Shown one piece after another: positions 2,790 through 45,741 of a stretch of DNA of 64,000 nt. The first letter of the stretch is position 1, and each line of letters begins with the position of its first letter. Under the pieces are notes generated by a model that was given only the letters and a program-made list of their open reading frames with translations, did no database searches and had not been told where the DNA came from. Made by a program: the position numbers and the translations under genes. The stretch is from Phycisphaerales bacterium. GTDB taxonomy: Bacteria; Planctomycetota; Phycisphaerae; Phycisphaerales; UBA1924. The stretch is from positions 1,138 to 65,137 of the forward strand of contig JAVJRZ010000012.1 of the NCBI GenBank assembly GCA_040219675.1. Direction: 5' to 3'.

Positions 2790-2801
2790 CAGGCGGGGAG
2801 T

Positions 2802-20324: not shown

Positions 20325-20807
20325 TCACAGCTTCGGGGCGTCGTCCTCGTCCTCATCGAAATCAAAGTCCGAGAACAGGTCCTCGTCCTCGTCGTCCATC
20401 AGCGAGCCCTGGCCGACCTGCTTGCTGGCCTTGGGCTGAGCGGCCGACGCGCCCGCGGCATCTGGCGCGGGCGTAGCCCGGGCGGTCGCCTCTTGGGCGT
20501 CGATGCTCGCCGGCTCGCCATCGATGCGGAGCACGAACACCGCCGGCCCGATCTTCAGCACGTCCCCGGCGGTCATCTCGGCCTCTTCGATCTGCAGGCC
20601 ATTGACGAACGTCCCGTTGCTCGAGCCCAGGTCCTCGATGAGCAGGCCGCCCGTGGGCGAGGGCTCCACGCGGCAATGCTCGCGCGACACTTCGGCCACG
20701 GGGATCCGCATGTCGCAGTCTTCCTCGCGACCGATCACCCGAGCCCGCGAGATCGCGTACGAACGCTGGTCCCCGTCGGGCGTCAACAGCACAAGTTCCA
20801 CTGCCAC
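20325..20807 (-). CDS. FHA-domain protein with an acidic C-terminal tail
   Basis: FHA signature: IGREEDCDMRIPVAEVSREHCRVE...LGSSNGTFVNG...GDVLKIG. The tail is DDEDEDLFSDFDFDEDEDD. The start is ambiguous: in-frame GTGs at 20801, 20807, 20816 and 20822, and a longer TTG ORF to 21023 that looks non-coding. Confidence 0.8.
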   Translation of the reverse strand: MAVELVLLTPDGDQRSYAISRARVIGREEDCDMRIPVAEVSREHCRVEPSPTGGLLIEDLGSSNGTFVNGLQIEEAEMTAGDVLKIGPAVFVLRIDGEPASIDAQEATARATPAPDAAGASAAQPKASKQVGQGSLMDDEDEDLFSDFDFDEDEDDAPKL

Positions 20808-23805: not shown

Positions 23806-25530
23806 ATGTCCGAAGACCTGCCAACCCTGCTCCTGCGGCCCCTGGGCTGGCAAGGCCGAACCCACCCCCTCGACGGGCGGGAGATCACCATCGGTCGCCA
23901 CCCGACCAACACCGTCCGCCTCACCGATGAAAAGGCCAGCCGGCACCACTGCGCGGTCCGCCCCGATGAGTCCGGCCGGTATGTCGTGGTCGACCTGGGA
24001 TCCCGCAACGGCACACGCGTCAACGAGGTCAAGGTCCGCCAGGCGCACCTCGACGACGGCGACGTCCTGCGCATCGGCGGCCACGAGTTCGCCGTCGAGG
24101 CCCGCCAGCCCGACGACGACCACGCCGAAGCGGACAGCGGCGACTCGTCCACCGCCACGGCCGTCCGCGCCACCGAGCGCAAGCGCGCCACCAGGCGATC
24201 CTCCAAGACCGCCGCCACCGAAGCGCGCTGGGCCAAAGAGATCCGCCGAACCATCGAGAGCCTGCCGCCCGCGGGCGCTCTGGCCGACGACATCACGATC
24301 CTCAACGCCTCGGGCCAGCGCACCAGCGCGCTCTCGGGCCAGAGCCCGGGGCCGGTCGCCGTCCGCCTGCTGCTGGGCAGCGCCGACAAGAGCCGCGCGA
24401 CCGACATCCACCTCGAACCACGCGGCGAGAGCTACAACGCCCGCCTGCGCGTCGACGGGCAGATGGTGCCGCTGGCCGAGCTGCCCGCCAGCGTCGGCAC
24501 GCTGGCCTGCAACCTGATCAAGACCGCGTGCGAGCTCGAAGTCTCCGGCAAGCAGGCCATCCACGACGGCACCATGTCGGCCCTGTTCACCGTCGACGAC
24601 GCCGACCGCAGGGTCGAGTACCGCGTCAGCTTCACGCCGGCCGTCGGCGGGCAGAAGCTCGTCATGCGCGTGCTCGACGGGCGCGGCGTGCCCAATAGCG
24701 TCGATGACCTGGGCCTGGCCCCCTACATGCTCCCGCGCATCAAACGCGTGCTCACCAAGGACCAGGGCATGCTGCTGGTCTGCGGCCCCACCGGCAGCGG
24801 CAAGACGACCACCCTGCACAACTGCGTCCGCGAGATCGACCGCGAACGCAAGAATGTCGTCACCATCGAAGACCCCGTCGAGTACAAGCTCGAGGGCGTC
24901 ACGCAGATCCCCGTCGACGATCGCCAGGGACTGGGCTTCCACGGTCTGCTCCGCAGTGTGCTGCGCCAAGACCCCGACGTCATCCTCGTGGGCGAGATCC
25001 GCGACGAAGAGACCGCGCGCACCGCCATGCAGGCCGCCATGACCGGGCACCTGGTCTTTTCCACCGTGCACGCCAAGGACACCGTCGCCGCCATCTTCCG
25101 CCTGCTGGACCTGGGCGTCGAGCCCTACCTCGTCGCCAATGCGCTCGACCTCGTGCTCGCCCAGCGCCTCGTCCGCGTGCTGTGCACGAACTGCCGCCGC
25201 GAGGTGCCGCTGACCCCGGGCGAATCCAGCAAGATCGGCGCCACCCTCAGCAAGCACGCCGGCGCCGCGAGCAAGGCCAACCATGTCTACGCCGCCGTCG
25301 GCTGCGCCCGCTGCCTGCGCACCGGCTACGTCGGCCGCCGCGCCATCTTCGAGTTGCTCGAGTTCAATGACGCGCTCCGCGATATCGTGCTCCAGGAGCC
25401 CTCCATCCAGGCCATCAAGCGCGTCATCGAGGCCGACCTGTTCACCAACCTGCGAACCTTCGGCCTGCGCCTGGCCGCCCAGGGCGTCACCAGCCTCGAA
25501 GAGGTCAACCAGGTGGCCGGTGGGCAGTAG
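23806..25530 (+). CDS. FHA domain fused to a GspE/PilB-type (T2SS/T4P) secretion ATPase
   Basis: N-terminal FHA: ITIGRHPTNTVRLTDEKASRHHCAV...LGSRNGTRVNE. ATPase core: Walker A GPTGSGKTTT, Walker B DPDVILVGEIRD, His box TGHLVFSTVHA, and a tetra-Cys motif CTNC...CARC. Confidence 0.9.
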   Translation: MSEDLPTLLLRPLGWQGRTHPLDGREITIGRHPTNTVRLTDEKASRHHCAVRPDESGRYVVVDLGSRNGTRVNEVKVRQAHLDDGDVLRIGGHEFAVEARQPDDDHAEADSGDSSTATAVRATERKRATRRSSKTAATEARWAKEIRRTIESLPPAGALADDITILNASGQRTSALSGQSPGPVAVRLLLGSADKSRATDIHLEPRGESYNARLRVDGQMVPLAELPASVGTLACNLIKTACELEVSGKQAIHDGTMSALFTVDDADRRVEYRVSFTPAVGGQKLVMRVLDGRGVPNSVDDLGLAPYMLPRIKRVLTKDQGMLLVCGPTGSGKTTTLHNCVREIDRERKNVVTIEDPVEYKLEGVTQIPVDDRQGLGFHGLLRSVLRQDPDVILVGEIRDEETARTAMQAAMTGHLVFSTVHAKDTVAAIFRLLDLGVEPYLVANALDLVLAQRLVRVLCTNCRREVPLTPGESSKIGATLSKHAGAASKANHVYAAVGCARCLRTGYVGRRAIFELLEFNDALRDIVLQEPSIQAIKRVIEADLFTNLRTFGLRLAAQGVTSLEEVNQVAGGQ

Positions 25531-25587
25531 CGGCCCACACCATCGCCGGCCGGCTCGCTCCGACCACGACCCCATTGGACACTCGCC

Positions 25588-27531
25588 TTGACGATCCGAC
25601 AACGCCTGCTGATCTGGATGGTGGGGTCCATCTCGCTGGTGTACGTCGCCGTGCTGGGCTTCGAGTTCTTCAACCTCAAAGAAACGGCCAACCAGCAGGC
25701 CGACGCCCGATACCGCGAGTCGCTCGAGTCGCGCGCGAGCGTGCTGGCCGACGAGCTCAGCCGGTCGGCCCTGGCAGCGCAGGAGTTCGCCGAGTCGGTG
25801 TCCCTCGCCGCGGCCCCCGAGACCGCCGCCGTCACCCAGGCCGAGCGGCTGCTGGTCCGTTCTTCCATCATCACCGCCGTCGAATGGAAGCTGCAAGAGG
25901 GCAGCGACACGATCGCCCGCGGTCGCTTTCCGGCCCTCAAGGACGGCGGCGCTACCCAGGCCCTGCCCTACGCCGAAGACATCGCCCCACAGGCGTGGTT
26001 CAGCTTTCGGCCCGACGACACCTGGCGACGCGCGGTGTGGATGACCAACCCCGTCGACCAGGGCGAACGCTCCACGCGTGCGCTCGTGGAGATCTCGGCC
26101 AACGCCTTCGCAGAGCGCCTGGCCGAGCCCATCGTCGACCGAAGCCTGCTGCTGCTGCTCGACGACAAGGGCCGCTACCTGTGGCACTACAACTCCGACG
26201 TCATGGACAGCGACGTGGACATCTTCTCCTTCGCCCGCGATACGCAGCGGCCGTCCATCGCCGAAGCCGCCCGCACGGCCCTCTCGGGCGAGGGCGGCAA
26301 GTCCCGCATGCCCCGCGGCTTCGTCACGCCCGAGCCCTACCTCATTTACTTCCACCCCGTCGGACAAACGCGCTGGACGCTGGTGACGGCCGTCCCCGAG
26401 GCCGAACTGCTCGCGCCCGTCTACGCCCAGCTTCTTCGTTCGATGACGGTGCTGGTCGTCGGCTTGCTCCTCATCGTCGCGGCGGTCTGGCTGACCGCCC
26501 GGCGGATCACCGCGCCCATCGAGCGCATCTCCGAAGCGGCCCGCCATCTGGGCGAGGGCCGACCATACGAGTCGGCCGCGAAGGGCGCACCCCGAGAACT
26601 CCGCCTGCTCGACAACGTGCTGTCGCACACCAGCGAACAGCTCAAGGCCCTCACCCAGCAGCAGATCGAGGAGGTCGCCCGCCGCGAGTTCGCCGAGGGC
26701 GAGCTGCGCACCGCCCGCACCGTGCAGGAATCGCTCCTGCCCGAGCCGCTGCCCGCGACCCAACTCGAGCCCTTCGCCGTGGCGCTCTCGGGCAAGAACC
26801 TGCCGGCCTCGGGCGTCGCCGGAGACTTCTTTGACTACCTCATCGACGCGCGCGGCAGGCTGGTGGTCTGCATCGCCGATGTCTCGGGCAAGGGCGCCCG
26901 CGCGGCCATGCTCATGGCCGTCGCCCGCACGGCGTTCCGAACCGCCGCCGACACCAGCGACCATCCCGGCCAGGTCATCGCATCGATCAACGACGTCGTG
27001 CTCGGCACCACGCACGACATCGATGGCAGCTTCATCACCATGCAGGTGGTCTTCATCGAGCCCGACGGCCGCATCACGTACGCCAACGCCGGGCACCCGA
27101 GCGCGACACTGGTTCTGCCCAACGGCTCGACGCGCGCGATCCTGAACACGACCGGCACCGTCGTCGGGGCCTTCGCCGATGCCCACGCGAACGCCCCTTG
27201 CGAGAAACTGGTCCTCGAAGACGATTGGCACGCCGTGGTCTTGGTAACCGACGGCGTGCTCGAGGCCACCTGCGCAGACCAGGACGCGGGCGGGCCCCGG
27301 CAGATGTTCTCCGAGGCAAGGCTCCAACAGACGCTCGAAACACTGGCCAACCACGATGCCCAGCAGATCGTCGACGAGCTCATCCAGGTCGTCCGAGACT
27401 TCGAGGGCGACACCCAGACCGACGACATCACCGTCGTCGCCATCGTGCGCCAGTCCAAGGCCGCCGAACTTCACGCAGACGACGCGGGCGGGCCGATAGC
27501 CATCCGAGAAACCGGAATGGACACACCATGA
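25588..27531 (+). CDS. Membrane sensor PP2C phosphatase: 2 TM + extracytoplasmic domain + HAMP + SpoIIE/PP2C
   Basis: TM1 LLIWMVGSISLVYVAVLGF, an extracytoplasmic region of about 270 aa, and TM2 LLRSMTVLVVGLLLIVAAVWL. These are followed by a HAMP-like ARRITAPIERISEAARHLGEG and the PP2C motifs GVAGDFFDY and CIADVSGKGARAAMLMA. TTG start at 25588. Confidence 0.88.
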   Translation: MTIRQRLLIWMVGSISLVYVAVLGFEFFNLKETANQQADARYRESLESRASVLADELSRSALAAQEFAESVSLAAAPETAAVTQAERLLVRSSIITAVEWKLQEGSDTIARGRFPALKDGGATQALPYAEDIAPQAWFSFRPDDTWRRAVWMTNPVDQGERSTRALVEISANAFAERLAEPIVDRSLLLLLDDKGRYLWHYNSDVMDSDVDIFSFARDTQRPSIAEAARTALSGEGGKSRMPRGFVTPEPYLIYFHPVGQTRWTLVTAVPEAELLAPVYAQLLRSMTVLVVGLLLIVAAVWLTARRITAPIERISEAARHLGEGRPYESAAKGAPRELRLLDNVLSHTSEQLKALTQQQIEEVARREFAEGELRTARTVQESLLPEPLPATQLEPFAVALSGKNLPASGVAGDFFDYLIDARGRLVVCIADVSGKGARAAMLMAVARTAFRTAADTSDHPGQVIASINDVVLGTTHDIDGSFITMQVVFIEPDGRITYANAGHPSATLVLPNGSTRAILNTTGTVVGAFADAHANAPCEKLVLEDDWHAVVLVTDGVLEATCADQDAGGPRQMFSEARLQQTLETLANHDAQQIVDELIQVVRDFEGDTQTDDITVVAIVRQSKAAELHADDAGGPIAIRETGMDTP

Positions 27532-28136
27532 CCCAAACCGCTCTCCAGCCCAGCTACGCAGAGATCTATGACCGCGTGATCGCCACCAACCCGGGGTACC
27601 ACGGCGCCCACGGCTCGCCGGGCTACCACGCCTGCCTCATGCACGCCGAAAGGCTGCGTGGGTTTTCGGGCAGATCCCTCGACGTCGGCTGCGGCGCGGG
27701 CTTCGTCGTGGCCTTGCTGAACATGCCCACGTTCGGTTTCGAGGCCCACGGCGTCGACGTCAGCGCCGAGGGTGTCGCCCGGGCCCGCAAGATCAACCCC
27801 GCCGATCGGATCGCGATCATGCAGCCGGGCAAGATCCCCCACGACCATGATTCCTTCGCCCTGGTCACGTGCTTCGACGTGATGGAACACCTCGACGAGC
27901 CGGACATTCTTGCTCTGCGCGACGAACTCCACCGCGTCCTTAAACCCGGTGGGCTGCTCTTCTGCTCGGCAAGCTGCCGGCCATCGGCCTCCAACGACCA
28001 CAACGGCGAGAATCTGCACCGCACCATCCAGCCCCCCCACTGGTGGGCCAACCTCTTTGACCCAGACGAGTACCTCGCGCGCAAGCCGACGGCCGACTTG
28101 CTGATGTGGTGGCGCAAGCCCGACGCGACCAGCTAG
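27528..28136 (+). CDS. Class I SAM-dependent methyltransferase
   Basis: Motif I LDVGCGAGF and post-motifs DSFALVTCFDVMEHL and LKPGGLLF. The ATG at 27528 overlaps the phosphatase stop (ATGA). Confidence 0.8.
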   Translation: MTQTALQPSYAEIYDRVIATNPGYHGAHGSPGYHACLMHAERLRGFSGRSLDVGCGAGFVVALLNMPTFGFEAHGVDVSAEGVARARKINPADRIAIMQPGKIPHDHDSFALVTCFDVMEHLDEPDILALRDELHRVLKPGGLLFCSASCRPSASNDHNGENLHRTIQPPHWWANLFDPDEYLARKPTADLLMWWRKPDATS

Positions 28137-28159
28137 CACGCCGCGTACCGTCCGCCATC

Positions 28160-28867
28160 ATGCGGCCACCTCAACAGACCACGCCCATGCCCCTGCTCCT
28201 CTGGCCCGGCCTGGCGGCCGATGCCCGGCTCTTTGCGCCCATCCGGGAGCGCCTCGAGAACGTCCAGACGCCCCGATTCATGGAACCCAGCGCAGGCGAG
28301 TCCCTGCGAGACTACGCCCAGCGCTACGCACCGACGCTCGCACCCCAACTGCCGCACGATGGCCGATACGCCGTTGGCGGCTTCAGCTTCGGCGGGCAAC
28401 TCGCCCTCGAACTCGCCGCGGTCCTTCAGCCCCGACCGAAGGGCGTCGTCCTCATCTGCGGCGTGCGCGGGACGCACCAGATCCTGCCCGCCTTCGGTCG
28501 CCAGCAGCGCCTGGGCGCCGCCATCCCCGGCGCCGTCGCACGCCGTCTCTACAAGCCCGTCGCCCGCCGGTTCGCCCAGCGCAACAGGCTCGACGACGCA
28601 TCGACCCGCCTTCTCCTCGACATGGCCCAGGACATCGATCCGAGGTTCCTCCGATGGTCGGCAGCCGCCTGCGCACGCTGGCCCGGACCGCCCGAACTCG
28701 ACCTGCCGATCCGCCACATCCACGGCCAGCTCGACACCATCATCCCCGATGTCCGCCACGAGGCCGATCGCACCATCGCCGGGGCGAGGCACCTGATCAC
28801 GCTGACCCACCCGCAAGAGGTCGCCGAATTCATCATGGCCAGCCTGGCCGACTTCGACAACGCGTGA
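28160..28867 (+). CDS. Alpha/beta hydrolase fold protein
   Basis: Nucleophile elbow GGFSFGG and a C-terminal GARHLITLTHPQEV (His) region. The ATG at 28160 is chosen over the longer ORF. Confidence 0.7.
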   Translation: MRPPQQTTPMPLLLWPGLAADARLFAPIRERLENVQTPRFMEPSAGESLRDYAQRYAPTLAPQLPHDGRYAVGGFSFGGQLALELAAVLQPRPKGVVLICGVRGTHQILPAFGRQQRLGAAIPGAVARRLYKPVARRFAQRNRLDDASTRLLLDMAQDIDPRFLRWSAAACARWPGPPELDLPIRHIHGQLDTIIPDVRHEADRTIAGARHLITLTHPQEVAEFIMASLADFDNA

Positions 28868-29025
28868 ACGAGCGCGACTGGAACGCGAGGCCCGAAACAC
28901 CGGCACTCTGGCTCCAGCACCCGCGCCGCGTTCGCGAGCACGGAGGACCAATCCACGAAGTACCATGATCGGGCGATGCCCCACGCCTGCCTTGCGGATA
29001 GCCCAAGCCTCACGAGGAGCCCTTC

Positions 29026-30333
29026 ATGATCGGAAGCAACGCCGCGGCCAGCACGACCGCGCTCCCCGCAGACCCCGCCGTGATCCTGCCGATGCGTCAA
29101 CGCGCCGAGGTCATCGATGCCCTGCTCCGCCGGCGCCTCGACCAAATCGTACCAAAGCTCATGCGCCGGCACGACATCGACATGTGGATCGTGATCGGCC
29201 GCGAGTACAACGAAGACCCCGTCCTCAAGACCATGCTGCCCGCCACGTGGCACGCCGCGCGCCGACGGACGATCCTTGTCTTCCATGATCCCGGCGCCCC
29301 GGCCGAGATCGAGCGGCTCGCCGTCTCGCGGTACCCGGTCGCAGACTTCTTCGCCTCGTCCTGGGATCCCAACGCACAGCCAAGCCAGTGGGCACGGCTC
29401 GCCGAGATCATCCAGGCCCGCAACCCCAAGCGCATCGGGCTGAACATCTCCGAGACCTGGGCCCACGCCGACGGCCTCGCACACTCGCAGTTCGAGGCCC
29501 TCCAGCAAGCCCTGCCAGGCCAACTCCGCCAGCGCGTCGCCTCGGCCGAGCCCCTCGCCGTCGGCTGGCTCGAGACGCGCCTGCCCGAGGAGATGGACAT
29601 CTACGCCTCAGCCTGCCGCATCGCCCACGAGATCATGGCCCAGGCCCTGTCCGAACGGGCCATCCAGCCGGGCGTGACGACCACCGACGACGTCAAGTGG
29701 TGGTGCCGAGAGCGGGTGAACCAGCTCGGGCTCCAGGACTGGTTCCACCCCATCGTCTCGCTCCAGCGCGAGGCGGGCGAAGCGAACTTCCTCGAGATGA
29801 TGGCGGGCGGCGAACAGATCATCCAGCGCGGGGACCTCATCCACCTCGATATGGGCATCGAGTACCTGCGCCTCCACACCGACACGCAGCAGATGGCCTA
29901 CGTCCTCAAGCCAGGCGAGTCCGAACCACCAGCCGGGCTCCAGCAGGCCTTCCGGCGAGGCAACCAGATGCAGGACATCCTCACCGCCCACCTGAAAGAG
30001 GGCCGCACCGGCAACGACGTGCTCGGCCTTGCCCTGGCGGAGGCCAAGTCACGCGGCATCAACGCCATGGTCTACGCCCACCCCGTAGGCTCCCACGGGC
30101 ACGCCGCGGGCCCGGCCATCGGCATGTGGGACCAGCAGGGCGGCGTGCCGGGAACCGGCGAATACCCGATCCACGACAACACCGCCTACGCGATCGAGCT
30201 CAGCATCCTCGAGCCCATCCCCGAATGGGGCGGCAAAGAGGTACGCATCATGCTCGAAGAAGACGCGGTGCTCCAAGACGGTCGCGTAACCTACCTCGAC
30301 GGACGCCAGACCGAGTTGCATGTGATCAAGTAG
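29026..30333 (+). CDS. M24-family metallopeptidase (Xaa-Pro aminopeptidase-like)
   Basis: N-terminal creatinase/prolidase-like domain. Pita-bread motifs GDLIHLDMG, HPVGSHGHAAGP and IELSI. RBS GAGGAG lies upstream of the ATG. Confidence 0.8.
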   Translation: MIGSNAAASTTALPADPAVILPMRQRAEVIDALLRRRLDQIVPKLMRRHDIDMWIVIGREYNEDPVLKTMLPATWHAARRRTILVFHDPGAPAEIERLAVSRYPVADFFASSWDPNAQPSQWARLAEIIQARNPKRIGLNISETWAHADGLAHSQFEALQQALPGQLRQRVASAEPLAVGWLETRLPEEMDIYASACRIAHEIMAQALSERAIQPGVTTTDDVKWWCRERVNQLGLQDWFHPIVSLQREAGEANFLEMMAGGEQIIQRGDLIHLDMGIEYLRLHTDTQQMAYVLKPGESEPPAGLQQAFRRGNQMQDILTAHLKEGRTGNDVLGLALAEAKSRGINAMVYAHPVGSHGHAAGPAIGMWDQQGGVPGTGEYPIHDNTAYAIELSILEPIPEWGGKEVRIMLEEDAVLQDGRVTYLDGRQTELHVIK

Positions 30334-30411
30334 GCCAGCCGCAGGCCGGAGCTAACCGGCGGGCCCGGGACTCTTGACCGCACAAGGGGGGCGGTCGCCG
30401 ATACTGTGTCG

Positions 30412-31491
30412 ATGCCGCGATACGCGATAGGCTGCATGACCGGGACCAGCCTCGATGGGCTGGACGCCGTCCTTGTGGAGGCAGAGGGAACGGGGCTGGA
30501 CCTGCGCGTGCGCCCGGTCCGCCACGCGGAATCGGGGCTGGGCGAACTCGCCGAAGGGCTGCGCGCTGCCGCGGGCGGAACGCCGATGGCCGCCGGGGAC
30601 CTCGCGCGCCTCGCCCTGGAACTCGGCAAGCTGCACGCCGCCGTGGCCGGGAACCTGATCGATGCCGCCGGCGTCGAGCCCGCGGTCTGCGCGGTGCCAG
30701 GCCAGACCATCTTCCACGCGCCCCCCGTCTCGATGCAGCTCGTCAATCCGTGGCCCATCGCGCAGCGGCTGGGCTGCCCGGTGCTCCACGACCTCCGCGG
30801 CGCCGACCTGGCGGCAGGCGGCCAGGGCGCCCCCATCACCCCGATCGCCGACTGGATCCTCTTCCGATCCGACGACGAGGACCGCGCGATCGTGAACCTC
30901 GGCGGGTTCTGCAACGTCACGACGCTGGCCGCGGGCTCGGGGCCCGAAGGCGTGCGAGGGTTCGACGTGTGCGCCTGCAACCAGGTCCTTGACGCCTGCG
31001 CCAGGCGGGCATTGGGCAAGCCCTACGACGAAAACGGCCAACGTGCCCTCACCGGCACGCCCGACGCCGAAGCGGTGGCCTCGCTCCTGGGCATCCTCGG
31101 CGCGCAATCTTCCGGCCATCGCTCGCTCGGCACGGGCGACGAGTGCCAGGCCTGGGTCGACACGCACGCCTCGCTCCACGCACGCGACCTGATGGCCAGC
31201 GCCGCCCACGCCGTCGGCGCCGCGATCGGCGAGCGGGTCCGAGGCTCTGGCGCAGCGGTCCTCTCGGGCGGCGGCGTGCAGAACGCCGCGCTCGTGCGCG
31301 CGATCGAGGATATCGCCGGCCCGTGCCGGACCACCGATGCCTTTGGCGTCGGCCCGCAGGAGCGAGAGGCGACCTGCATCGCCGTGCTGGGCCTGCTCGC
31401 GCTCGACGGCGTCGTCTACACCCAGGGACCAATCACAGGGCGCACCGCGCAACTGGCTACCGAAGGGGCCTGGATCGGGGTGCGCCCATGA
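30412..31491 (+). CDS. anmK: Anhydro-N-acetylmuramic acid kinase
   Basis: GCMTGTSLDGLDAVLVE N-terminal motif, NLGGFCNVT and LSGGGVQNAAL. Start is ATG 30412, or GTG 30406. Confidence 0.9.
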   Translation: MPRYAIGCMTGTSLDGLDAVLVEAEGTGLDLRVRPVRHAESGLGELAEGLRAAAGGTPMAAGDLARLALELGKLHAAVAGNLIDAAGVEPAVCAVPGQTIFHAPPVSMQLVNPWPIAQRLGCPVLHDLRGADLAAGGQGAPITPIADWILFRSDDEDRAIVNLGGFCNVTTLAAGSGPEGVRGFDVCACNQVLDACARRALGKPYDENGQRALTGTPDAEAVASLLGILGAQSSGHRSLGTGDECQAWVDTHASLHARDLMASAAHAVGAAIGERVRGSGAAVLSGGGVQNAALVRAIEDIAGPCRTTDAFGVGPQEREATCIAVLGLLALDGVVYTQGPITGRTAQLATEGAWIGVRP

Positions 31492-32402
31492 CAACGCCGC
31501 CCGATCGCTCGACCGTACCAACCGAGGCCGTGCACCAGCGCAGCGCGGGGCTGGACGCGCTGCCGACGTCCGATCTGCTCGCGCTGATGTCCGAAGAAGA
31601 CGAACGCGCCGTGCGCGCCGTGCGTGCCCAAGCGGATCGCATCGAGGCCCTCATCGAGGCCCTCGTGCCGCGCTTCCGGGCGGGCGGCCGCCTGATCTAC
31701 ATCGGCGCCGGCACATCCGGGCGCCTGGGCGTGCTCGACGCGTCGGAGTGCCCCCCCACGTTCCTGGTCGACCCGTCACGAGTCGTCGGCATCATCGCGG
31801 GCGGCGAAGCCGCGCTCCGCCGATCGAGCGAATCGCTCGAAGACGACCCCCACGGCGCAAGAGCCGAGTTGGAACGCCTCGACGTGGGCAGGCTCGACAA
31901 CGTCGTCGGGCTTACCGCCGGCGGGACCACCCCCTACCCACTGGGCGCGCTGCGGATCGCACGCTCGCGCGGAGCCCTGACGGCCCTGGTGACCTGCGGG
32001 AGCCTGCCGCAAGACCACGCCGCGGACCACGTCATCAGGCTCGAAACAGGGCCCGAAGTGCTGGCCGGATCGACACGCCTCAAAGCCGGGACCGCGACCA
32101 AGCTCGTGCTCAACATGATCTCCACCACCCTCATGGTGCGCCTGGGCAAGGTGCACGACGGGCTGATGGTCGACGTCAGCGCCACGAACGACAAGCTGCG
32201 CGACCGCGCGGCCCGGATCGTCGCACGCCTCGTCGGCGGCTCGCGCGACGAAGCCCTCGCACTGCTCGACGACGCCGGCGGTCGCGTCAAGACCGCGGTC
32301 GTCATGCGCTCGCTGGATGTTCCGCGGGACAAGGCCGAGGCGCTGCTCGAAGCCTCGGGCGGGTTGCTCCGCAACGCGCTGGAACGGGGTGCGGCGTGCT
32401 GA
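31488..32402 (+). CDS. murQ: N-acetylmuramic acid 6-phosphate etherase
   Basis: SIS domain GGRLIYIGAGTSGRLGVLDASECPPTF, STRLKAGTATKLVLN. The ATG overlaps the anmK stop (ATGA). Confidence 0.93.
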   Translation: MTTPPDRSTVPTEAVHQRSAGLDALPTSDLLALMSEEDERAVRAVRAQADRIEALIEALVPRFRAGGRLIYIGAGTSGRLGVLDASECPPTFLVDPSRVVGIIAGGEAALRRSSESLEDDPHGARAELERLDVGRLDNVVGLTAGGTTPYPLGALRIARSRGALTALVTCGSLPQDHAADHVIRLETGPEVLAGSTRLKAGTATKLVLNMISTTLMVRLGKVHDGLMVDVSATNDKLRDRAARIVARLVGGSRDEALALLDDAGGRVKTAVVMRSLDVPRDKAEALLEASGGLLRNALERGAAC

Positions 32403-33847
32403 CGGCGCTCGATGGCCTGGTCTTCGCGTCCTACGCCCTGGCCGTGCTGGGGATCGGATGGCTCGCCGCCCGTCGGGTCCAGAGCGCCGAGGCGCTGTAC
32501 ACCGGCGATCGACGCGTGCCGGCCTGGGCCATCGCGGTCTCGGTCGTCGCCACGTCGGTCTCGGGCGCAACCTTCATCGGCGGGCCCCAGCAGGCGTACG
32601 CCTCCAACCTCACCTACCTGTCGGCATCGATCGCCTCGGTGCTCGGGGCGGTGCTGGTCGCCTGGCTGCTGCTGCCAAAGTTCTACGCCGCCCGAGCGAC
32701 AACCGTGTACGAGCCGATCGGCGCACGGCACGGCCCCTTCGCACAGAAGTCCTGCGCCGCGGCGTTCCTGCTCGGCCGACTGCTCGCCAGCGGGTCGAGG
32801 CTCTACATCGCGGCCGTGCCGTGCAGCCTCATCGTGTTCGGCGACCTGGAAACGGCCCACCTGCTGGGCTGCGTGGCGGCCCTGGGGACGCTGGCCCTCA
32901 TCTACACCTCCTGGGGTGGCATCCGGGCTGTCATCTGGACCGACGCGCTCCAGGCCCTCGTGATGGTCGTCGCGGTGGTCGCGAGCATCTGGGTGCTGGT
33001 CGGGCAGATCGGCGTCGCCCCGAGCGACCTGCCCGCCGCCATCGCCAATGCCGACCCCACGGGCGACAAGCTCGTGCTGATCGACCTGTCGTGGGACCTG
33101 GGCTCGCCCTTCACGCTCTGGGCGGTGCTGCTGGGTCTGACGCTCTTCAATGCCGCGGCGTTCGGCACCGACCAGGATCTCGCCCAGCGCCTGCTGACTT
33201 CCCGCAGCGCTCCACGCGCAGCGTGGTCGCTCATCGCCTCGAGCCTGCTGGGAACGCTCGTCGTCGGGCTGTTCCTCTGCGTGGGCCTGCTGCTCTTCGT
33301 ACGCGACGCTGCGGACGGCGCGGTCGTCCAGGGCGATACACGCGGCGTGTACCTCGCCTTCATCCTCGACGATCTGCCCACGGGCCTGCGCGGCCTGCTG
33401 GTCGCGGGCCTGTTCGCCGCCGCCATGAGCAGCACCGACTCGGCGCTCAACGCGATGTCCAGCTCGGTCGTCGTCGACCTGGGCTTCGGCAAGAAGGACG
33501 CCGGCGCAGGCACCGGCCGGCTCGTCAACGCAGCCTGCGGCACCGCCTTGATCGTCATGGCGTGCGTCTTCGTGCTCGCAGAAGGCGGCAAGAGCGAGGG
33601 CCTCATCCCCTTCGCGCTGGGCGTGATGATCTACGCCTACGCGGGCCTGCTGGGCGTCTTCGTATCCACCCTGCTGCTCGGACGCGGAAGCGCCACAACG
33701 GTCCTCTGCGCGCTCATCTACGCGGCGACCACCGTCGCCGTGCTGCAATTCGCGATCGATCCGGCGCCATCGCTGGGCTGGCGCATGCTCGCCGGCTTCC
33801 TCGTCAGCCTCGTGGTCTGCTCGATAGCAAAGGGCCCGCAAAGATGA
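32396..33847 (+). CDS. Sodium:solute symporter (SSS) family transporter
   Basis: About 13 TM segments. SSS-like N-terminus: YTGDRRVPAWAIAVSVVATSVSGATFIGGP. The GTG at 32396 overlaps the murQ stop, and its own stop overlaps the nagZ ATG. Confidence 0.8.
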   Translation: MLTALDGLVFASYALAVLGIGWLAARRVQSAEALYTGDRRVPAWAIAVSVVATSVSGATFIGGPQQAYASNLTYLSASIASVLGAVLVAWLLLPKFYAARATTVYEPIGARHGPFAQKSCAAAFLLGRLLASGSRLYIAAVPCSLIVFGDLETAHLLGCVAALGTLALIYTSWGGIRAVIWTDALQALVMVVAVVASIWVLVGQIGVAPSDLPAAIANADPTGDKLVLIDLSWDLGSPFTLWAVLLGLTLFNAAAFGTDQDLAQRLLTSRSAPRAAWSLIASSLLGTLVVGLFLCVGLLLFVRDAADGAVVQGDTRGVYLAFILDDLPTGLRGLLVAGLFAAAMSSTDSALNAMSSSVVVDLGFGKKDAGAGTGRLVNAACGTALIVMACVFVLAEGGKSEGLIPFALGVMIYAYAGLLGVFVSTLLLGRGSATTVLCALIYAATTVAVLQFAIDPAPSLGWRMLAGFLVSLVVCSIAKGPQR

Positions 33848-34860
33848 TCGCCGCGCTCCGCGAACTGGGGGCCATGACCATGCTCGGCATCCGCGGCGCG
33901 ACCCCGGGCGATCCGGAACTGGAAGAAGACCTCGACGCCTGCCTCCATGCCGGCGTGCGCATGGTGATCCTCTTCGATCGTGACCTCGCCACCGGCGGGC
34001 GGCGGAACGTGCGATCGCCCGAACAGGTCCGGGCGCTGACGGATCACGTGCGGGCGCGTCTCGGCAAAGACGCCCTGATCGCCATCGACCAGGAGGGCGG
34101 GCGCGTGCAACGCCTCTCGCAAGCGCACGGCTTCGCCGGCTGGCCCTCGGCACTCGCGTACGCATCACTCGCAGAAGATCAGCAATGGACTCATGCACGC
34201 ACGATGGCGCGCGCCCTGCGCGACGCCGGCATCACCCTGAACTTCGCCCCGTGCGTGGACGTGAACATCAACCCCGCGTCGCCAGTGATCGGGGCCCTGG
34301 AGCGGCCCTTCTCCGGTGAGCCCGCAGTGGTCGCCGCATGCGCCGCACGCGTGGTCATAGCGCATCGGGAGGCTGGCATCGCCTGCGTGCTCAAGCACTT
34401 CCCAGGACACGGCTCGGCATCGGCCGACTCGCACCACGACCTCGTCGACATCTCCAACACCTGGCAGCGCGAACACGAACTGGAGCCCTACCGCTCGCTC
34501 ATGGGCGAGCCTGTCGGCGTGATGACCGGCCACCTCGTGCTGGACGCGTTCGATGCCGAACGCCCGGCGTCGCTGTCGCACGCCGTGACGACAGGCCTGC
34601 TCCGCGACGAACTCGGGTTCGACGGCCCCGTGTTCACCGACGCGCTGGACATGGAGGGCGTGCGGGCTCGCTGGTCGCTCCAGCAGACGATCCAACTCGC
34701 CGTGCAGGCCGGCGCCGACGTGCTCGTACACGCCTGCAACTCCGCCCGGGCCGAACACGCGCCGGGCGTCGTCCGGGCGATGGAGCAAGCCGCCTCGCAG
34801 ATCGAAGGCCTCCCCGCCCGCGCAAGCCGGTCGTGCGAACGGGTACGGTCGATCACATGA
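33844..34860 (+). CDS. nagZ: Beta-N-acetylhexosaminidase (GH3)
   Basis: IAIDQEGGRVQRL and KHFPGHGSASADSHHDL, the GH3 NagZ catalytic region. ATGA overlap with the upstream symporter. Confidence 0.9.
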   Translation: MIAALRELGAMTMLGIRGATPGDPELEEDLDACLHAGVRMVILFDRDLATGGRRNVRSPEQVRALTDHVRARLGKDALIAIDQEGGRVQRLSQAHGFAGWPSALAYASLAEDQQWTHARTMARALRDAGITLNFAPCVDVNINPASPVIGALERPFSGEPAVVAACAARVVIAHREAGIACVLKHFPGHGSASADSHHDLVDISNTWQREHELEPYRSLMGEPVGVMTGHLVLDAFDAERPASLSHAVTTGLLRDELGFDGPVFTDALDMEGVRARWSLQQTIQLAVQAGADVLVHACNSARAEHAPGVVRAMEQAASQIEGLPARASRSCERVRSIT

Positions 34861-34932
34861 TCGCTCCCAGCACGGCTCCCGCGAAAGCCACACTCGCCGA
34901 CGAGAGCAGCGTTTCCAGCGCTTCAGACCCAA

Positions 34933-35005
34933 TGGAGCGGAGGCGACTCGAACGCCCAACTTCCAGCTTGCAAAGCTGGCACTCTACCAATTGAGTTACC
35001 GCCCC
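34933..35005 (-). tRNA. tRNA-Ala (anticodon TGC)
   Basis: Hand-folded cloverleaf: acceptor GGGGCGG/CCGCTCC with a G3:U70 pair, D arm ACTC-AATTGGTA-GAGT, anticodon stem CCAGC/GCTGG with loop TTTGCAA, and T loop TTCGAGT. CCA is not encoded. Confidence 0.9.
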
Positions 35006-35137
35006 CTCACGGCCACCAGTCTATGCCTTCTCGGACGGCAGCCGCACCAACCGGTAGCGGCAGGCCCCGACCCGCCCACGCCACCTCCCCGCCGCCCCCA
35101 CACGCACCGATAGTGGCCGGCGAAGGGAGATGCCCCG

Positions 35138-36436
35138 ATGCCCACCCCAGCGTCCACCGCGATCGCCGTCCTGGCCCTGGCCGCCGTCGCCCTCGGACCC
35201 GCACAGGCCACCCAAGAGACCGCTCAGCAAGCCGTACAGGCCTTCGAACGAGCCCGCCAGGCCGAGATCGAAGGCCGGCACCGCGAAGCCTTCGACGCCT
35301 ACCTCGACGCCTGGCACGATCCGGCCCTGCGAGCAGAAGCCGCCCGGCGGGCCCACGACCTTGAACGCATCGCCCGCTTCAACACCAAGGACGACCTCTC
35401 CGCCCTCCAGCCGCTCCAGCAACGCCTGGGCGACCGCTTCACGACCTACCGCTCCCGCTCCTTCCTCGTGCTGTCCGACGCCGACGACGCATGGACCCGC
35501 TCACGCATCGCCCTGCTCGAGCGCGCCCGCGACCAGTACTTCCGAGACCTCGATCGCCTCGGCGTCCCGGTGCATCCCCACCCCAAGCGCCTCATCTGCG
35601 TCTTCTTCAAAGAGCACGGCCACTACCTCGAGTTCGCCCAGAACCACGACGGCTTCAACGCCGGCTGGACAGCCGGCTACTACAGCATGGCCCACAACGC
35701 CATCATCATCCACGACGACCGGTCCTCGCCCAGCCTCACCCGCGCCATGCGAACCCTCGAACAGCAGCAGGCACGCATCGACGAGCTTCGCGAACGCGCC
35801 CAGCAGGCCCAGCGAGCGCGGCAGACCCAACAGGCCGCACTCCTCTTCGACGCCGCCACCGACCTCGAGACCAACGCCAACAAGGAACGCCAGCGCATCG
35901 AGGACCAGGTCCTCCGCTTCGGCATCGCCAAGGTCCTGCACGAGGCCATCCACCTCCTCGCCTTCAACACGGGCCTGCAACACAAGGACGTCGGCTACCC
36001 CCTCTGGGTCAGCGAGGGCCTCGCCGCCAGCTTCGAGGCCGAGAGCACGACCGGCCGCTTCGGCTTCGCCTTCGCCTACGAGCCTCGCCAGAGCCAACTG
36101 GACGAGCTCGTGCTCGCCGGCCAGCTCCCGCCGCTGGCCGACCTGCTCACCCTCGACGACAACACCAACCTCCAAGCCCACACCGCCCGGCCCATCTACG
36201 CCGCCGCCTACGGGCTCTTCAAGGAACTGCACCGCACCCAGCGCGACAGCCTCGCGGCCTATCTCCGAGAACTCGCCGACCTGCCCAAGGGCCGCCAGAC
36301 CCCCGCCGATCACCTCGCCCGATTCGAGACGCACTTCGGCGACGTGCAGGCCCTCGAACGCCGGATCACCCGCCGCTGGACGGCCGCCGCTCGCGAACGC
36401 CAAGGCGACCCCGCCTGGCGTGCCGCGGGCCTGTAG
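35138..36436 (+). CDS. Secreted DUF1570-family putative zinc metalloprotease
   Basis: Signal peptide MPTPASTAIAVLALAAVALGPAQA. HExxH in VLHEAIHLLAFNTGL, followed by PLWVSEGLAASFE, the DUF1570 hallmark. RBS GAAGGGAGA. Confidence 0.8.
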   Translation: MPTPASTAIAVLALAAVALGPAQATQETAQQAVQAFERARQAEIEGRHREAFDAYLDAWHDPALRAEAARRAHDLERIARFNTKDDLSALQPLQQRLGDRFTTYRSRSFLVLSDADDAWTRSRIALLERARDQYFRDLDRLGVPVHPHPKRLICVFFKEHGHYLEFAQNHDGFNAGWTAGYYSMAHNAIIIHDDRSSPSLTRAMRTLEQQQARIDELRERAQQAQRARQTQQAALLFDAATDLETNANKERQRIEDQVLRFGIAKVLHEAIHLLAFNTGLQHKDVGYPLWVSEGLAASFEAESTTGRFGFAFAYEPRQSQLDELVLAGQLPPLADLLTLDDNTNLQAHTARPIYAAAYGLFKELHRTQRDSLAAYLRELADLPKGRQTPADHLARFETHFGDVQALERRITRRWTAAARERQGDPAWRAAGL

Positions 36437-36639
36437 CCCGGCGTGGCGGCCTGTTCGGGCACCCCCCGGCCAGGCCTCAGCCACGCGGGCAACCCCTCGC
36501 CCCGCGGACGGGCCGCTAGACCCAGCGCATCACCCTCGGTAGTCTGTACCGGTTCCACACCGCCCGAACCCCGAGCGGCCGGCGTTGCTGTTGGCGCCTC
36601 ATGCCCTGGGAACGGACCGCAGACATCAGGAGATACGCC

Positions 36640-39600
36640 ATGCCCAACCAACCACGCCTGGCCCACCGTCGCGTCTCGGCCGCCTTCCTCATGGCCGTAG
36701 CCGCAGGAACGGCTTCGCTGAACATGGCCTGCGCCAGCGATGCCTCGACCCTGCCCGAGGCCGCCCGCGCCGCCGATGCCACGCTCTCGGCCATGGGCAC
36801 ACACAGCGACGAGCCCGCCGCCGCAACCTGGATCAACACCCAGGCCCGCGTCGGCTACCCGCGCATGCCCAGCCTGAGCCCCAACGGCGACCTCATCGCC
36901 TTCACCTGGGCGGGCGATCTCTGGGCGGTCCCCAGCGGCGGCGGCATCGCCTCCCAGCTCACCACCCACCCCGCGGACGACCTCGCCTCGGCCTTCAGCC
37001 CCGACGGCTCCACCATCGTCTTCGAGTCCAACCGCGACGGCAGCCAGAACCTCTACGCCGTGCCCGTCTCGGTCGAGAACGGCCGCGTCGTCGCCGGCGC
37101 CGTCCGCAGGCTCACGCTCAGCGATCGCAGCCTCTCGCTTACCGGCTTCCACCCCGATGGCGACCACGTGCTGGTCCACGCCCGGCTCGATCCGGCCATG
37201 TACCGCGGCACGAACATGTACAGCGTGCCCATCGAGGGAGGCGCCATCACGCCGCTGACCGACGCCTACGGCCTGGCCCCGCGGATGGCCGCCGACGGCT
37301 CGCGCGTCCTCTTCACACGCCAGCGCGACATCAACGATCGCCCGGCCTATCGCGGCCCCGCCGCCGGCGACCTCTGGCAGATGGACTCCGAAACGGGCCG
37401 CTTCACCCAACTCACCACCTTCGACGGCAACGACGCCCACGGCTTCGCCCTTCCCGACGGCTCGACCATCTACGTCTCCAGCCGCCACGGCCAGAACAAC
37501 ATCTGGCGCATCCCCGCCGGCCGCACCGACGCCGACGGCCCACGCCGCCTCACCGACTTCAAGCCCGACGAGGGCGAGTTGACCATCGGCCACGGCGTGC
37601 TCGACCTGAACGTCTCCTTCGACGGCTCCACCGCCGCCTTCCTCGTGTGGGACACGCTCTACACCCTCGACCTCACCCAGCCGGGCGCCCAACCCCAGCC
37701 CGTCGAGATCTACGCCTCGGGCGACACCCAGATGCTCGACACGCGCCTCGAAACGCTCGACCGCCAGGTCAGCGAGGCCGCCCTCAGCCCCGATGGCAAG
37801 ACCCTCGCCGTCGTCGCGCGGGGCGAGGTCTTCGTCCGCAGCACCGAGGAAGACCGCCCCACCCGGCGCGTCACCTTCACCGCCGGCCGCGAGCAGGACA
37901 TCGCCTGGAGCCCCGACAACCAGTACCTCTACTTCGCCAGCGACGAGACCGGCGAGTTCGCCATCTACCGCGCCACCGTCAGCCTCGCCCGTGAAGACCT
38001 CAAGCCCGAGCAAGCCGAGCAAGAGCAGCCGGCCGAAGAACCGGTCGAGGAACCAGCCGAAGAGCCAGCCGAAGAACCAGCCGCCGCCGATGATGGCGAC
38101 ACCGAAGCGGCCGACCAGGACGCCACCGAAGAACAAGCCGCGCAAGAACAAGGCACCGAAGAAGAGCCCGCCAAGGAAGACAAGGTCGACCAAGGCAAGC
38201 GCTGGGCCGAGTCACTCCGCTTCGACGTCCAGCCCCTCGTCATGACGGACGTCCGCGAGGTCTCGCCCATGCCGGCGCCCGACGGCCGCTCCATGCTCTT
38301 CATGCGCGAGCGCGGCGACCTCTGGCACCACGACTTCGCCACCGGCCAGGAACGCCTGGTCCTGGAAAGCTGGAACACCCCCGACGTCCAGTGGGCCAGC
38401 GACAGCCGGCACATCGTCTACAGCGTCGCCGACCTCGACTTCAACAGCGACGTCTGGCTCATGGACCTCGGCGACGACGCGGACGAGCCCATCAACCTCA
38501 CCCGCCACCCCGACATCGACACCTCGCCGCGCCTGAGCGCCGATGGCAAGATGCTCGTCTTCCTCAGCGACCGCGCGGGCAACAACTGGTCCTACGACGT
38601 CTACGCCGTCCTGCTCGACCGCTCGCTCGAAGGCCTGACCGACTACGAACTCGAGCAGCACTTCACCGAGGCCGCCAAGGCCGTCAGCAAGAAGGGCGCC
38701 ATCGACACGCCCAACTTCGACGAAGAACACGAAGCCGGCGAACCGCTCGAGTTCGACGCTGAGGACGCCTGGCAACGCGTTCGCCGCCTCACCAGCGTCA
38801 ACGGCGCCAGCGACCTGGCCCTGACGCCCGGCGGAGACCGCGTCCTCTACTCCACCAGCATCGACGGCAGCACCAGCCTCTTCTCGGTCAACTATCGAGG
38901 CCAGGACCGCAAGACCGTTCAGAGCGGCGGCGTCTCGCAGGTGCGCGTCACGCCCAACGGCTCCAAGGTCCTCTTCATCCGCGGCGGCCAGGCCTCCACC
39001 GCCCGCCCCTCGGGCGGCGGCGCAGAGACCATGGGCATCAACGCCCGTGTCCGCATCGACGTCGCCGCCGAACAGGCCCAGAAGTTCCGCGACGCCGCCA
39101 ACATGCTCGGCCGCGAGTTCTACCACCCCACCATGAAGGGCCTCGACTGGGAAGGCCTGACCCAGCGATACCTTGAACTCGCCCGCGTCACGCGCACGCC
39201 CAGCGAGTTCTACCAGGTCGGTCGCCTGCTCATGGGCGAGCTCAACGGTTCGCACCTGGGCATCTGGGGCGGAGAGCAGCTCTACAGCCCGCCGAGCATC
39301 AGCACGGGCTACCTCGGCATCAACGCCAACCCCCTCGCCGGCGGCTACGAAGTCACCTACGTCCTGCCCGAAGGGCCAGCATGGCGCGACGCCAGCAAGC
39401 TGCACGAGGGCGACATCATCACCGCCATCAACGGCAACCCCCTCGCCGAAGAGGGCGGCATGCCCATGATGGATCTCAGCGAGGCCATGGCCGGCACCGC
39501 GGGCCAGGAAACCCTGCTCGACATCATTCCCGCCGACCCCGAGCGATCGCAGTACGTCCTCATCGTCCCCACGTCCTCGGGCGGCGACAGCAACCTCCGC

Positions 39601-44934: not shown

Positions 44935-45741
44935 ATGGCCAAACCCAAGGCCATCGCCATCATCCCCGCCCGCCTGGGCTCCACCCGCTTTCCAGGCAAG
45001 GCCCTGGCAAGCGACACCGGCAAGCCCATGGTCGTCCACGTCTGCGAACGGGCCAAGATGGCCGCCGCCGTCGCCAACGTCGTCGTCGCCACCGACAGCA
45101 TGGACATCGTCAGAGCCGTCGAATCCCACGGCTTCGACGCCGTCATGACCAGTGCCGAGCACGAGAACGGCACCAGCCGCCTGGCCGAAGCCGCCAAGAC
45201 CATGGGCCTCAAGAACCAGCAGCCCATCGTCAACGTGCAGGGCGACGAGCCCGAGATCGAGCCCGACATCATCGACGCGGCGCTCGTCGCGGTGGGCCAG
45301 CACCTGCTGCCCGGCAAACTCAACACGATGTATCGCGTCGCACAACTCGGCACCGTCGCCACACCCTTGGACAACGACGAAGACCTTGCCAACCCCAACC
45401 TCGTCAAGGCCGCGCTCGGCCTCGTCGAGCCCGACCTCGGTGTCGCTCGCGCCCTGTACTTCTCTCGCGCCCCGATCCCCCACAACCGTGACGGCGCCTC
45501 CGCGGCCCCCGCCTTCCGACATGTCGGCATCTACGCGTACGACGTATTCTCGCTTGATCGCTACGTCTCGCTGCCCCCCACTCCCCTCGAACAGTGCGAG
45601 AAGCTCGAGCAACTCCGCTGGCTCGAGCACGGCCTGCCCATCGCCGTCGCCGTTCGCCGCTGCTCGCACCAGGGCATCGACACCCCCGAGCAGTACGCCG
45701 CCTTCGTCGAGCGCTTCAAAGCGAACCAGGCCACCGCGTGA
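44935..45741 (+). CDS. kdsB: 3-deoxy-manno-octulosonate cytidylyltransferase (CMP-Kdo synthetase)
   Basis: AIAIIPARLGSTRFPGKAL, VNVQGDEPEI and EQLRWLEHG. Confidence 0.93.
   Translation: MAKPKAIAIIPARLGSTRFPGKALASDTGKPMVVHVCERAKMAAAVANVVVATDSMDIVRAVESHGFDAVMTSAEHENGTSRLAEAAKTMGLKNQQPIVNVQGDEPEIEPDIIDAALVAVGQHLLPGKLNTMYRVAQLGTVATPLDNDEDLANPNLVKAALGLVEPDLGVARALYFSRAPIPHNRDGASAAPAFRHVGIYAYDVFSLDRYVSLPPTPLEQCEKLEQLRWLEHGLPIAVAVRRCSHQGIDTPEQYAAFVERFKANQATA

Follow-up and report, generated by a model that had tools for sequence, protein, structure and literature searches.

What does a secretion ATPase do with a phosphopeptide reader at its N-terminus, and are the genes that follow it its partners? 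The question is raised by a gene at positions 23806..25530 (+ strand) of a 64,000-nucleotide stretch of DNA from a Phycisphaerales bacterium (GenBank assembly GCA_040219675.1, contig JAVJRZ010000012.1), hereafter called the window. Its 574-aa product joins an FHA domain, a reader of phosphothreonine (pThr), to a PilB/GspE-type ATPase core, and it is followed in the same direction by genes for a sensor phosphatase, a methyltransferase and a hydrolase, hereafter the cassette. We propose, with a probability of about 0.6, that the protein is an extension ATPase of the PilB/GspE class from a family of single origin, in which the N1 domain was replaced by a tethered, pThr-competent FHA domain; that the motor is recruited or gated through pThr and serves a machine encoded elsewhere; and that the cassette is not a family-wide partner.

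The ATPase, its FHA domain and its family

The window is about 69% G+C, and third-position G+C (GC3) sets its real genes apart. Four open reading frames (ORFs) were found exactly where an earlier note on this DNA had placed them, with a strong coding signal (GC3 0.84-0.93, and 0.93 for the ATPase gene). The ATPase is 100% identical to a protein from a Phycisphaerales metagenome-assembled genome (P0001). Pfam FHA matched residues 27-91 at 66.6 bits, above its cut-off of 20.7 and over profile positions 1-67 of 67, and Pfam T2SSE matched residues 187-568 at 342 bits over positions 13-369 of 370. Together with a motif scan, these matches bear out the earlier note's fusion of an FHA domain to a full secretion-ATPase core. 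The N2 and C-terminal ATPase domains (24364..25509, + strand) contain a Walker A motif (G327PTGSGKT), an Asp box (IEDPVE, 354), a Walker B motif (DPDVILVGEIRD, 389) with the catalytic Glu, a His box (TGHL, 413) and a tetracysteine CxxC...CxxC zinc motif (C460xxC463 and C500xxC503), all of them invariant in an alignment of 118 orthologues. This zinc motif is typical of GspE and PilB and absent from PilT.

A phmmer search of the PDB aligned the cores of PilF, PilB and GspE with the protein from residue ~157-187 onward (E ~1e-79 to 1e-81, identity 36-40%), while CpaF structures matched at E ~1e-8 only, against 1e-81 for PilF and PilB. An AlphaFold2 (AF2) model built on the 118 orthologues, with a mean predicted local distance difference test score (pLDDT) of 83, returned PilF, PilB and GspE structures in Foldseek (5oiu, 5it5, 5tsh, 4pht). 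The model lays out the FHA domain at residues 8-99 (pLDDT >90), a disordered tether at 104-134 (<50), a helix at 141-152 (~94), N2 at 181-290 and the ATPase domain at 300-571. The helix opens a conserved segment before N2 (residues 141-186; 24226..24363, + strand) in which alignments A1 and A4 hold an invariant W142, an LPP154-155 motif, G170 and GP182-183. Pfam gave no match to T2SSE_N (N1) at E <= 0.01, residues 1-99 being the FHA domain, and the NCBIfam GspE model aligned from model position 96 only. The earlier note had the FHA domain standing in for both N1 and N2; the replacement of N1 holds, but N2 is retained according to the PDB alignments, the starting point of the GspE model and Foldseek. 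The protein also scored under the NCBIfam equivalog cut-offs for GspE (TIGR02533, 382.5 vs 630.25 bits) and PilB (TIGR02538, 366 vs 675.65 bits).

The FHA domain (residues 8-99; 23827..24102, + strand) has its pThr-binding residues in GR30-31, SRHH45-48 and NGT68-70. G30, R31, S45, R46, H48, N68 and G69 are invariant in the 118 orthologues, and T70 is present in at least 90% of them. The GR, SRxH and NGT residues align with those of Mycobacterium tuberculosis FhaA/Rv0020c (PDB 3po8), and the FHA domains of GarA and EmbR align likewise, GarA-type domains being among the best PDB matches. From these residues the domain is predicted to be pThr-competent and, because the canonical set is complete, phospho-dependent control of the motor can reasonably be supposed. 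The disordered linker that follows (residues 100-140; 24103..24225, + strand) contains a Thr cluster at residues 114-138 (SSTATAVRATERKRATRRSSKTAAT), whose motif, D-S-[AS]-T-x-T-x-T-[RK]-T-[ST]-R-K-K, is confined to orthologues that are at least 81% identical. Since 37 of the 118 family members have no Thr at all in the linker, self-binding of a linker pThr was rejected as a family-wide mechanism.

FHA and T2SSE occurred together in all of the best 120 homologues listed (54-100% identity), and the source labels among the matches listed, where named, were almost all Phycisphaerales, Phycisphaerae or Planctomycetota. Among 50%-identity cluster representatives, several dozen of the top matches aligned from the N-terminus. 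In a neighbour-joining tree of 117 cores, all 43 placeable FHA-bearing cores formed one clade, in which the sole other tip was a contig-truncated copy; median core identity in this set was 58% within the FHA clade and 40% to canonical GspE/PilB. The alignment of the 118 orthologues holds more than 100 invariant columns, and the pThr-contact residues stay invariant while the cores diverge to 45% identity. Judging from the alignments and the tree, the fusion arose once and was retained; it is conserved across Phycisphaerae and extends to other Planctomycetota, an orthologue at 43% identity being present in a Planctomycetaceae metagenome-assembled genome (L009). The architecture is already recognised in database annotation, for example under JGI names such as 'GspE ... 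/ pSer/pThr/pTyr-binding FHA protein'. Our literature searches found no published description of an FHA-fused GspE/PilB-type ATPase, and a 2024 review of PilB does not mention FHA.

Two further architectures were observed among the matches. Proteins P0243-P0251 and P0254-P0257, of ~1000 aa each, give two GspE-core matches apiece at 35-39% identity and are apparent tandem double secretion ATPases. At locus L170 (5146-6873), and also at L171 and L172, the orthologue of the FHA-fused ATPase has an in-frame TAG right after the FHA domain (HEFLV*, L170 5437-5439). The remainder can be called from a GTG at 5551, the three assemblies agree, and the Thr cluster lies inside the untranslated gap; the arrangement is either a natural split or a recent pseudogene.

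Genomic neighbourhoods of the family

Fifty family loci, each with FHA and core in one ORF, were collected from genome and metagenome scans and contig look-ups, the whole window included. The genome scan with full-length alignment A1 yielded only 7 full-length fusion loci; Walker-region peptides drew mostly canonical GspE/PilB, and 72 canonical loci from the same scan served as the control set for neighbourhood statistics. A Pfam search on a pseudo-alignment of 59 neighbour proteins gave the top 25 families only, by which a single T2SSF could not be excluded, and hidden Markov models (HMMs) built from control-locus clusters of T2SSF, secretin, pilin, PilN and T2SSM were used instead. T2SSF lay within 10 kb in 55 of the 72 control loci, and prepilin-type ORFs were found in 40 of them. 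The corresponding counts for T2SSF, the pilin HMMs and the prepilin motif were each 0/50 in the family, with a secretin in one locus (L120) and a PilM-like gene in two (L112 and L106). The family is therefore a consistent genomic orphan. Across the whole 64-kb window there was no match to the T2SSF, secretin, pilin, PilN or T2SSM HMMs and no prepilin motif; Tad genes were found in none of the family loci, and jackhmmer and a motif scan found no Hanks-type kinase in the window. The earlier note's observation that no platform protein, pilin or T2SS partner lies nearby thus extends from the window to the 49 other loci, and canonical pilus or T2SS genes did not turn out to be the constant neighbours of this ATPase elsewhere.

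The flanks are housekeeping genes that differ by clade. Upstream, relatives of at least 74% identity share the order uppS-purA-FHA-hemN-rluA-6PGL with the window; members ~45-64% identical to the window protein neighbour serS, CN_hydrolase, maf and lpxK, and the remotest clade neighbours RRM and CNNM genes. The sole hints of a partner machine or a partner-switching input come from four remote members. One lies near a STAS protein, an RsbW-like kinase and a 1184-aa secretin (L120 12595-17195), another near STAS and RsbW (L121 10073-11047), and two lie ~8 kb from a PilM_2-like protein (L112 58-2115, 685 aa; L106 2-1870, 622 aa). Partner-switching was rejected as a general link, STAS and RsbW being near the L120 and L121 members and not in the window or the other 48 loci; the window was searched for them by jackhmmer with the L120 sequences.

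Outside the family, two acidobacterial loci (L014 3246-5950, L016 4910-7687) carry a Hanks-type kinase and a stand-alone FHA protein 2-4 kb upstream of a canonical pilB, an arrangement that suggests kinase/FHA input in trans to PilB systems in another phylum.

The downstream cassette and other genes of the window

The phosphatase gene (25588..27531, + strand; 647 aa) begins 57 nt after the ATPase gene, its ORF starting at a TTG (25588) with the first ATG 30 nt further in. Its stop overlaps the start of the methyltransferase gene as ATGA (27528-27531), and 23 nt separate the latter from the ATG of the hydrolase gene at 28160. The order and spacing described earlier were thus confirmed on the coordinates. 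A promoter and terminator scan of the block was uninformative: it showed no sigma-70-like sites, and its terminator-like sites lay on the minus strand only, at chance level. The methyltransferase (27528..28136, + strand; 202 aa) is a class I S-adenosylmethionine-dependent enzyme matching Methyltransf_11/23/25, and the third gene (28160..28867, + strand; 235 aa) encodes an alpha/beta hydrolase or thioesterase-like protein (Abhydrolase_6 34 bits, Thioesterase 31 bits).

The next-gene product is, as the earlier note had it, a two-transmembrane (TM) sensor with a SpoIIE/PP2C domain: Pfam SpoIIE scored 131.5 bits, TM segments span residues 5-30 and 277-311, and the AF2 model comprises a long stalk helix and two PAS-like modules, with TM2 continuing into an extended helical pair (helices 271-322 and 336-382), and a PP2C domain. 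Pfam HAMP reached only 20.4 bits against a cut-off of 25, over 23 residues, and Pfam found no Cache domain in the sequence. Remote homologues combine dCache_1, HAMP and SpoIIE, which, with the helical pair after TM2, lends the earlier note's HAMP assignment indirect support. Foldseek matched the PP2C domains of RssB, SiaA, Rv1364c-RsbU and SpoIIE as well as dCache sensor domains. The PP2C catalytic residues D413, D431, D555, D612 and D613 are invariant in alignment A5. By its modelled dCache-like/2TM/HAMP-like/PP2C layout, the protein is a ligand-sensor phosphatase of the RsbU/SiaA type. Phosphatases of the RsbU/SiaA/SpoIIE type normally act on partner-switching proteins and not on Hanks-kinase substrates.

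Within the family, the cassette was found beside the ATPase only in the window's shallow clade, at no less than 81% identity, and its internal gene order varies there. The order is SpoIIE-methyltransferase-hydrolase in the window, methyltransferase-SpoIIE-DUF2515-hydrolase in L084 (ATPase 83% identical), with DUF2515 as an extra gene, and SpoIIE-hydrolase in L170-172 (81%), the methyltransferase being absent from L170; in L175 (81%) an orthologue of the same methyltransferase is followed by the contig end. The cassette is absent from L085 (81%), whose linker has the Thr cluster, from L087 and L001 (74%), L089 (64%) and L003 (56%), and from all remoter loci with at least 2.5 kb of downstream sequence. 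The phosphatase itself has only ~12 full-length orthologues; those at 37-42% identity adjoin gcvT and not the ATPase, with a small zinc-ribbon membrane ORF on their other side. The phosphatases of genomes that share 81-86% identity in the flanking genes are 63-64% identical to each other.

Two synteny anchors, identified by Pfam, lie further downstream: a DUF1570 gene (35138-36436, + strand) and a Tricorn-like protease gene (36601-40233, + strand). By tblastn, the DUF1570-Tricorn pair follows the ATPase directly in L085 and comes after SpoIIE-hydrolase in L170; in the window it lies 6 kb beyond the cassette, after four more genes (M24-AnmK-SSF-GH3). The position of the pair shifts among these three genomes, which marks the stretch downstream of the ATPase as a variable junction. 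On this comparison of gene orders, the cassette appears as a variable insert at a synteny breakpoint in one shallow clade, a recent local addition and not a family-wide partner of the motor. The four genes of the earlier note do not make up a conserved module; in related genomes, the test that the note itself had set, the block largely failed. Its proposal that the motor is switched by Ser/Thr phosphorylation through the adjacent phosphatase fares unevenly: phospho-control remains reasonable on the FHA residues, whereas the coupling to the phosphatase loses ground with an adjacency restricted to the shallow clade, where it is possible but unproven.

That the four genes nevertheless form one unit, in which a pThr site such as the ATPase's own linker Thr cluster would be read by the FHA domain and erased by the ligand-gated phosphatase, switching the motor, is a reading we consider unlikely. 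It draws on the co-directional order, the 57-nt gap without a plus-strand terminator-like site, and the persistence of the cassette next to the ATPase in the window, L084, L170-172 and L175 (where the methyltransferase is seen) despite the internal reshuffling, in the same clade of at least 81% identity that has the Thr motif. Single-chain FHA::SpoIIE fusions in other bacteria indicate that FHA and this phosphatase type can cooperate, and GarA-type FHA proteins, close PDB matches of this domain, are established to bind their own phosphorylated Thr motif. Yet L085 has the Thr cluster and no cassette, the next relatives (L087 and L001) and all remoter loci with sufficient flank also lack it, and the 37-42% orthologues of the phosphatase sit beside gcvT and the zinc-ribbon ORF. 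The phosphatase is more divergent than its flanks, 37 of the 118 linkers are Thr-free, and the PP2C domain is of the RsbU/SiaA class in a window with no STAS, RsbW or Hanks kinase. Moreover, cassette and Thr cluster were co-gained in one evolutionary event, so that N = 1.

The close spacing, the lack of a terminator-like site, the clade-specific Thr cluster and the FHA::SpoIIE fusions keep alive, as a minority hypothesis, a clade-specific GarA-like switch linking the cassette to the motor. A bolder version, which we hold to be improbable, makes the window's genus-level clade the owner of a self-contained switch: the linker Thr cluster would be phosphorylated, read by the FHA domain in cis or between hexamer subunits in the manner of GarA and Rv1747, and erased by the adjacent dCache-HAMP-PP2C protein in response to an extracytoplasmic ligand, the family as a whole being pThr-docked, N1-less filament motors of an unrecognised planctomycete machine. 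If this were true, it would amount to direct gating of a PilB/GspE-class ATPase by an external chemical signal.

Several observations concern the cassette's genes and their surroundings. Single-chain FHA::SpoIIE (PP2C) fusions are common in metagenomes, including Acidobacteria (L132 318-1937, L155 7491-9116, L148 131-1810, L133 9833-11599), and occur also as proteins P0176, P0185 and P0226; FHA readers and SpoIIE-type phosphatases have therefore been combined in other bacteria. L175 has a second, unrelated GAF-SpoIIE phosphatase (1830-3191, - strand) ~5 kb upstream of its FHA::GspE gene. The zinc-ribbon ORF of the remoter phosphatase orthologues (L173 8885-9178, L174 5098-5391, L177 3885-4178) encodes 97 aa with two TM helices and a CxxC...CPECG zinc ribbon, and overlaps the phosphatase stop. 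Weakly similar ORFs stand directly after the FHA::GspE gene in L089 (9708-10181 and 10188-10778); as a link between phosphatase and ATPase they were dropped, the resemblance being 28% pairwise (E = 3e-4) and confined to TM segments and CxxC. The genes between cassette and DUF1570/Tricorn in the window (28900-36436), namely an M24 peptidase, AnmK, a sodium:solute symporter and a GH3 glycosidase, are absent from L170 and L085 and look like an insert for peptidoglycan or amino-sugar recycling; the symporter and GH3 ORF boundaries (31337-34860) overlap and are uncertain.

A second, stand-alone FHA protein is encoded upstream of the ATPase on the minus strand (20325..20807). The earlier note had recorded its presence correctly, but its size is ~160 aa, with a start inferred from L084, and not that of the 232-aa maximal ORF. 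It scores 65.6 bits with Pfam FHA, has the canonical pThr-binding residues and ends in a strongly acidic C-terminal tail (DDEDEDLFSDFDFDEDEDD). In every relative of at least 74% identity (L001, L084, L085, L087, L170) the gene is flanked by purA and hemN; hemN, rluA and the 6PGL-like gene separate it from the ATPase. Elsewhere the window encodes FtsK (2802-5972), CTP synthase (45152-47770, in an ORF over-extended at its 5' end) and, near its end, a FlgN-like flagellar chaperone (62071-62598), on account of which the organism is probably flagellated.

Proposed role and comparison with known systems

In the role that we favor, the ATPase would power a type IV filament or a T2SS-like machine whose genes lie elsewhere in the genome. 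In place of N1, the FHA domain would attach the motor to a Thr-phosphorylated partner or detach it from there; this partner could be a platform protein, a scaffold, or a regulator that a planctomycete Ser/Thr kinase phosphorylates. Assembly of the filament or secretion machine would thereby become phosphorylation-dependent. Planctomycetes carry numerous Ser/Thr kinases and scatter functionally related genes. In Planctopirus limnophila, a large putative operon (Plim_0409-0402) has been described, and four genes in a row (Plim_0410-0407) bear annotations as type II secretion proteins (PMC10632474).

Five points weigh against this proposal. The binding of pThr by the FHA domain is deduced from its residues; the loci examined did not reveal the partner machine, whose location elsewhere we infer; and a Hanks kinase lies near one family locus only (L005), with none in the window. 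The few remote members near pilus-related genes (the L120 secretin and the PilM_2-like genes of L112 and L106) give the link to filaments sparse support. Finally, in four lineages of the clade the cassette has kept its place beside the ATPase while being rearranged internally, which could exceed chance synteny.

The FHA domain might instead be a phospho-independent structural adaptor, as in YscD of type III secretion or EssC of type VII secretion, that merely tethers the ATPase to a membrane component; we judge this somewhat less likely again than the four-gene unit. Pfam Yop-YscD_cpl does match the domain at 49 bits, no kinase lies nearby, and the FHA-like domains of EssC are reportedly structural. 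However, the FHA model outscores Yop-YscD_cpl (66.6 vs 49 bits), the domain aligns one-to-one with the phosphopeptide-binding FHA domains of FhaA and GarA, and its pThr-contact residues stay invariant while the cores diverge to 45% identity. Decay or loss of function in an orphan paralogue of canonical GspE/PilB, as the gene's orphan position in 50/50 loci, the in-frame TAG of one lineage (L170-172) and the sub-equivalog scores might suggest, is very improbable given intact catalytic and zinc motifs, more than 100 invariant columns, a strong coding bias (GC3 0.93) and retention of the family across Phycisphaerae and in other Planctomycetota.

Both the positioning and the regulation of PilB/GspE motors are attributed to N1, through docking to GspL or PilM, c-di-GMP, or PilZ/FimX. 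A whole bacterial class in which N1 has been swapped for a pThr reader and the gene unlinked from its machine would offer a natural test of how such motors are recruited, and would extend control by Ser/Thr phosphorylation, known from type VI secretion (T6SS) and suspected in Tad/Kil systems, to the PilB/GspE branch. In terms of planctomycete cell biology, the family points to a conserved ATPase that is uncharacterised and probably linked to surface filaments or secretion. The four-gene module matters less, being a local arrangement with weak comparative support.

Compared with the PilB, PilF and GspE (EpsE) motors of type IVa pili and T2SS, the window protein has the same N2 and ASCE ATPase domains, with Walker A/B, Asp and His boxes and the tetracysteine zinc motif. 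It shares all core features and departs from the canonical type in three others, namely the N1 domain, the operon context and the equivalog score. Where those motors have an N1/GSPII (MshEN-type) domain, the window family has FHA on a disordered linker, and it never adjoins gspF/pilC, pilins or pilMNO (T2SSF 0/50 vs 55/72 control loci). N1 (GSPII/T2SSE_N, MshEN-like) docks to GspL/PilM or binds c-di-GMP. Docking of GspE to GspL and regulatory input in PilB have both been assigned to it (PMC11656802).

In T6SS, the pathway runs through the kinase PpkA, the PP2C-fold phosphatase PppA as eraser, Fha1 and pThr-TssL, with kinase and phosphatase encoded in the cluster. Fha-pThr control of the assembly or activation of this nanomachine is established (PMC3953482). 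There, as proposed for the window family, an FHA reader couples Ser/Thr phosphorylation to a secretion machine. The FHA domain of T6SS is a separate protein, however, whereas here it is fused to the motor, no Hanks kinase is found in the window, and the adjacent phosphatase, of the RsbU/SiaA type, is lineage-specific.

Some FHA proteins recognise a phosphorylated Thr of their own, in GarA within the ETTS motif and in Rv1747 within the phospho-acceptor linker. GarA/OdhI and Rv1747 are among the closest PDB matches of the FHA domain, and the window's clade similarly has, as a predicted likeness, a Thr cluster in a disordered segment beside it; the cluster is limited to the clade of at least 81% identity, however, and 37 of 118 linkers are Thr-free. 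The neighbouring phosphatase alone resembles RsbU, SiaA and chlamydial RsbU, with which it shares a periplasmic Cache-like sensor (by model, there being no Pfam Cache match in its sequence), TM helices, a HAMP-like helical linker and a SpoIIE-family PP2C domain. It falls far under the SiaA equivalog cut-off (48 vs 700) and has no STAS, RsbW or SiaB/C partners in the window.

The closest parallel in design comes from Tad-type motors. An FHA domain, an intrinsically disordered region and an ATPase are combined in the class III CpaF ATPases of Tad systems, found mainly in betaproteobacteria (PMC12019362), and in KilF of Myxococcus (PMC8460266). The order is the same as in the window family: N-terminal FHA, disordered region, short helical element, N-terminal domain of the motor and ATPase. 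Their core is of the CpaF/TadA type, whereas that of the window family is of the PilB/GspE type with a zinc motif, and KilF is encoded in a Tad-like cluster with many FHA proteins, while the window family is a genomic orphan. With different cores and different gene contexts, the FHA-Tad and FHA-PilB/GspE fusions appear to have been acquired independently, in separate branches of the superfamily.

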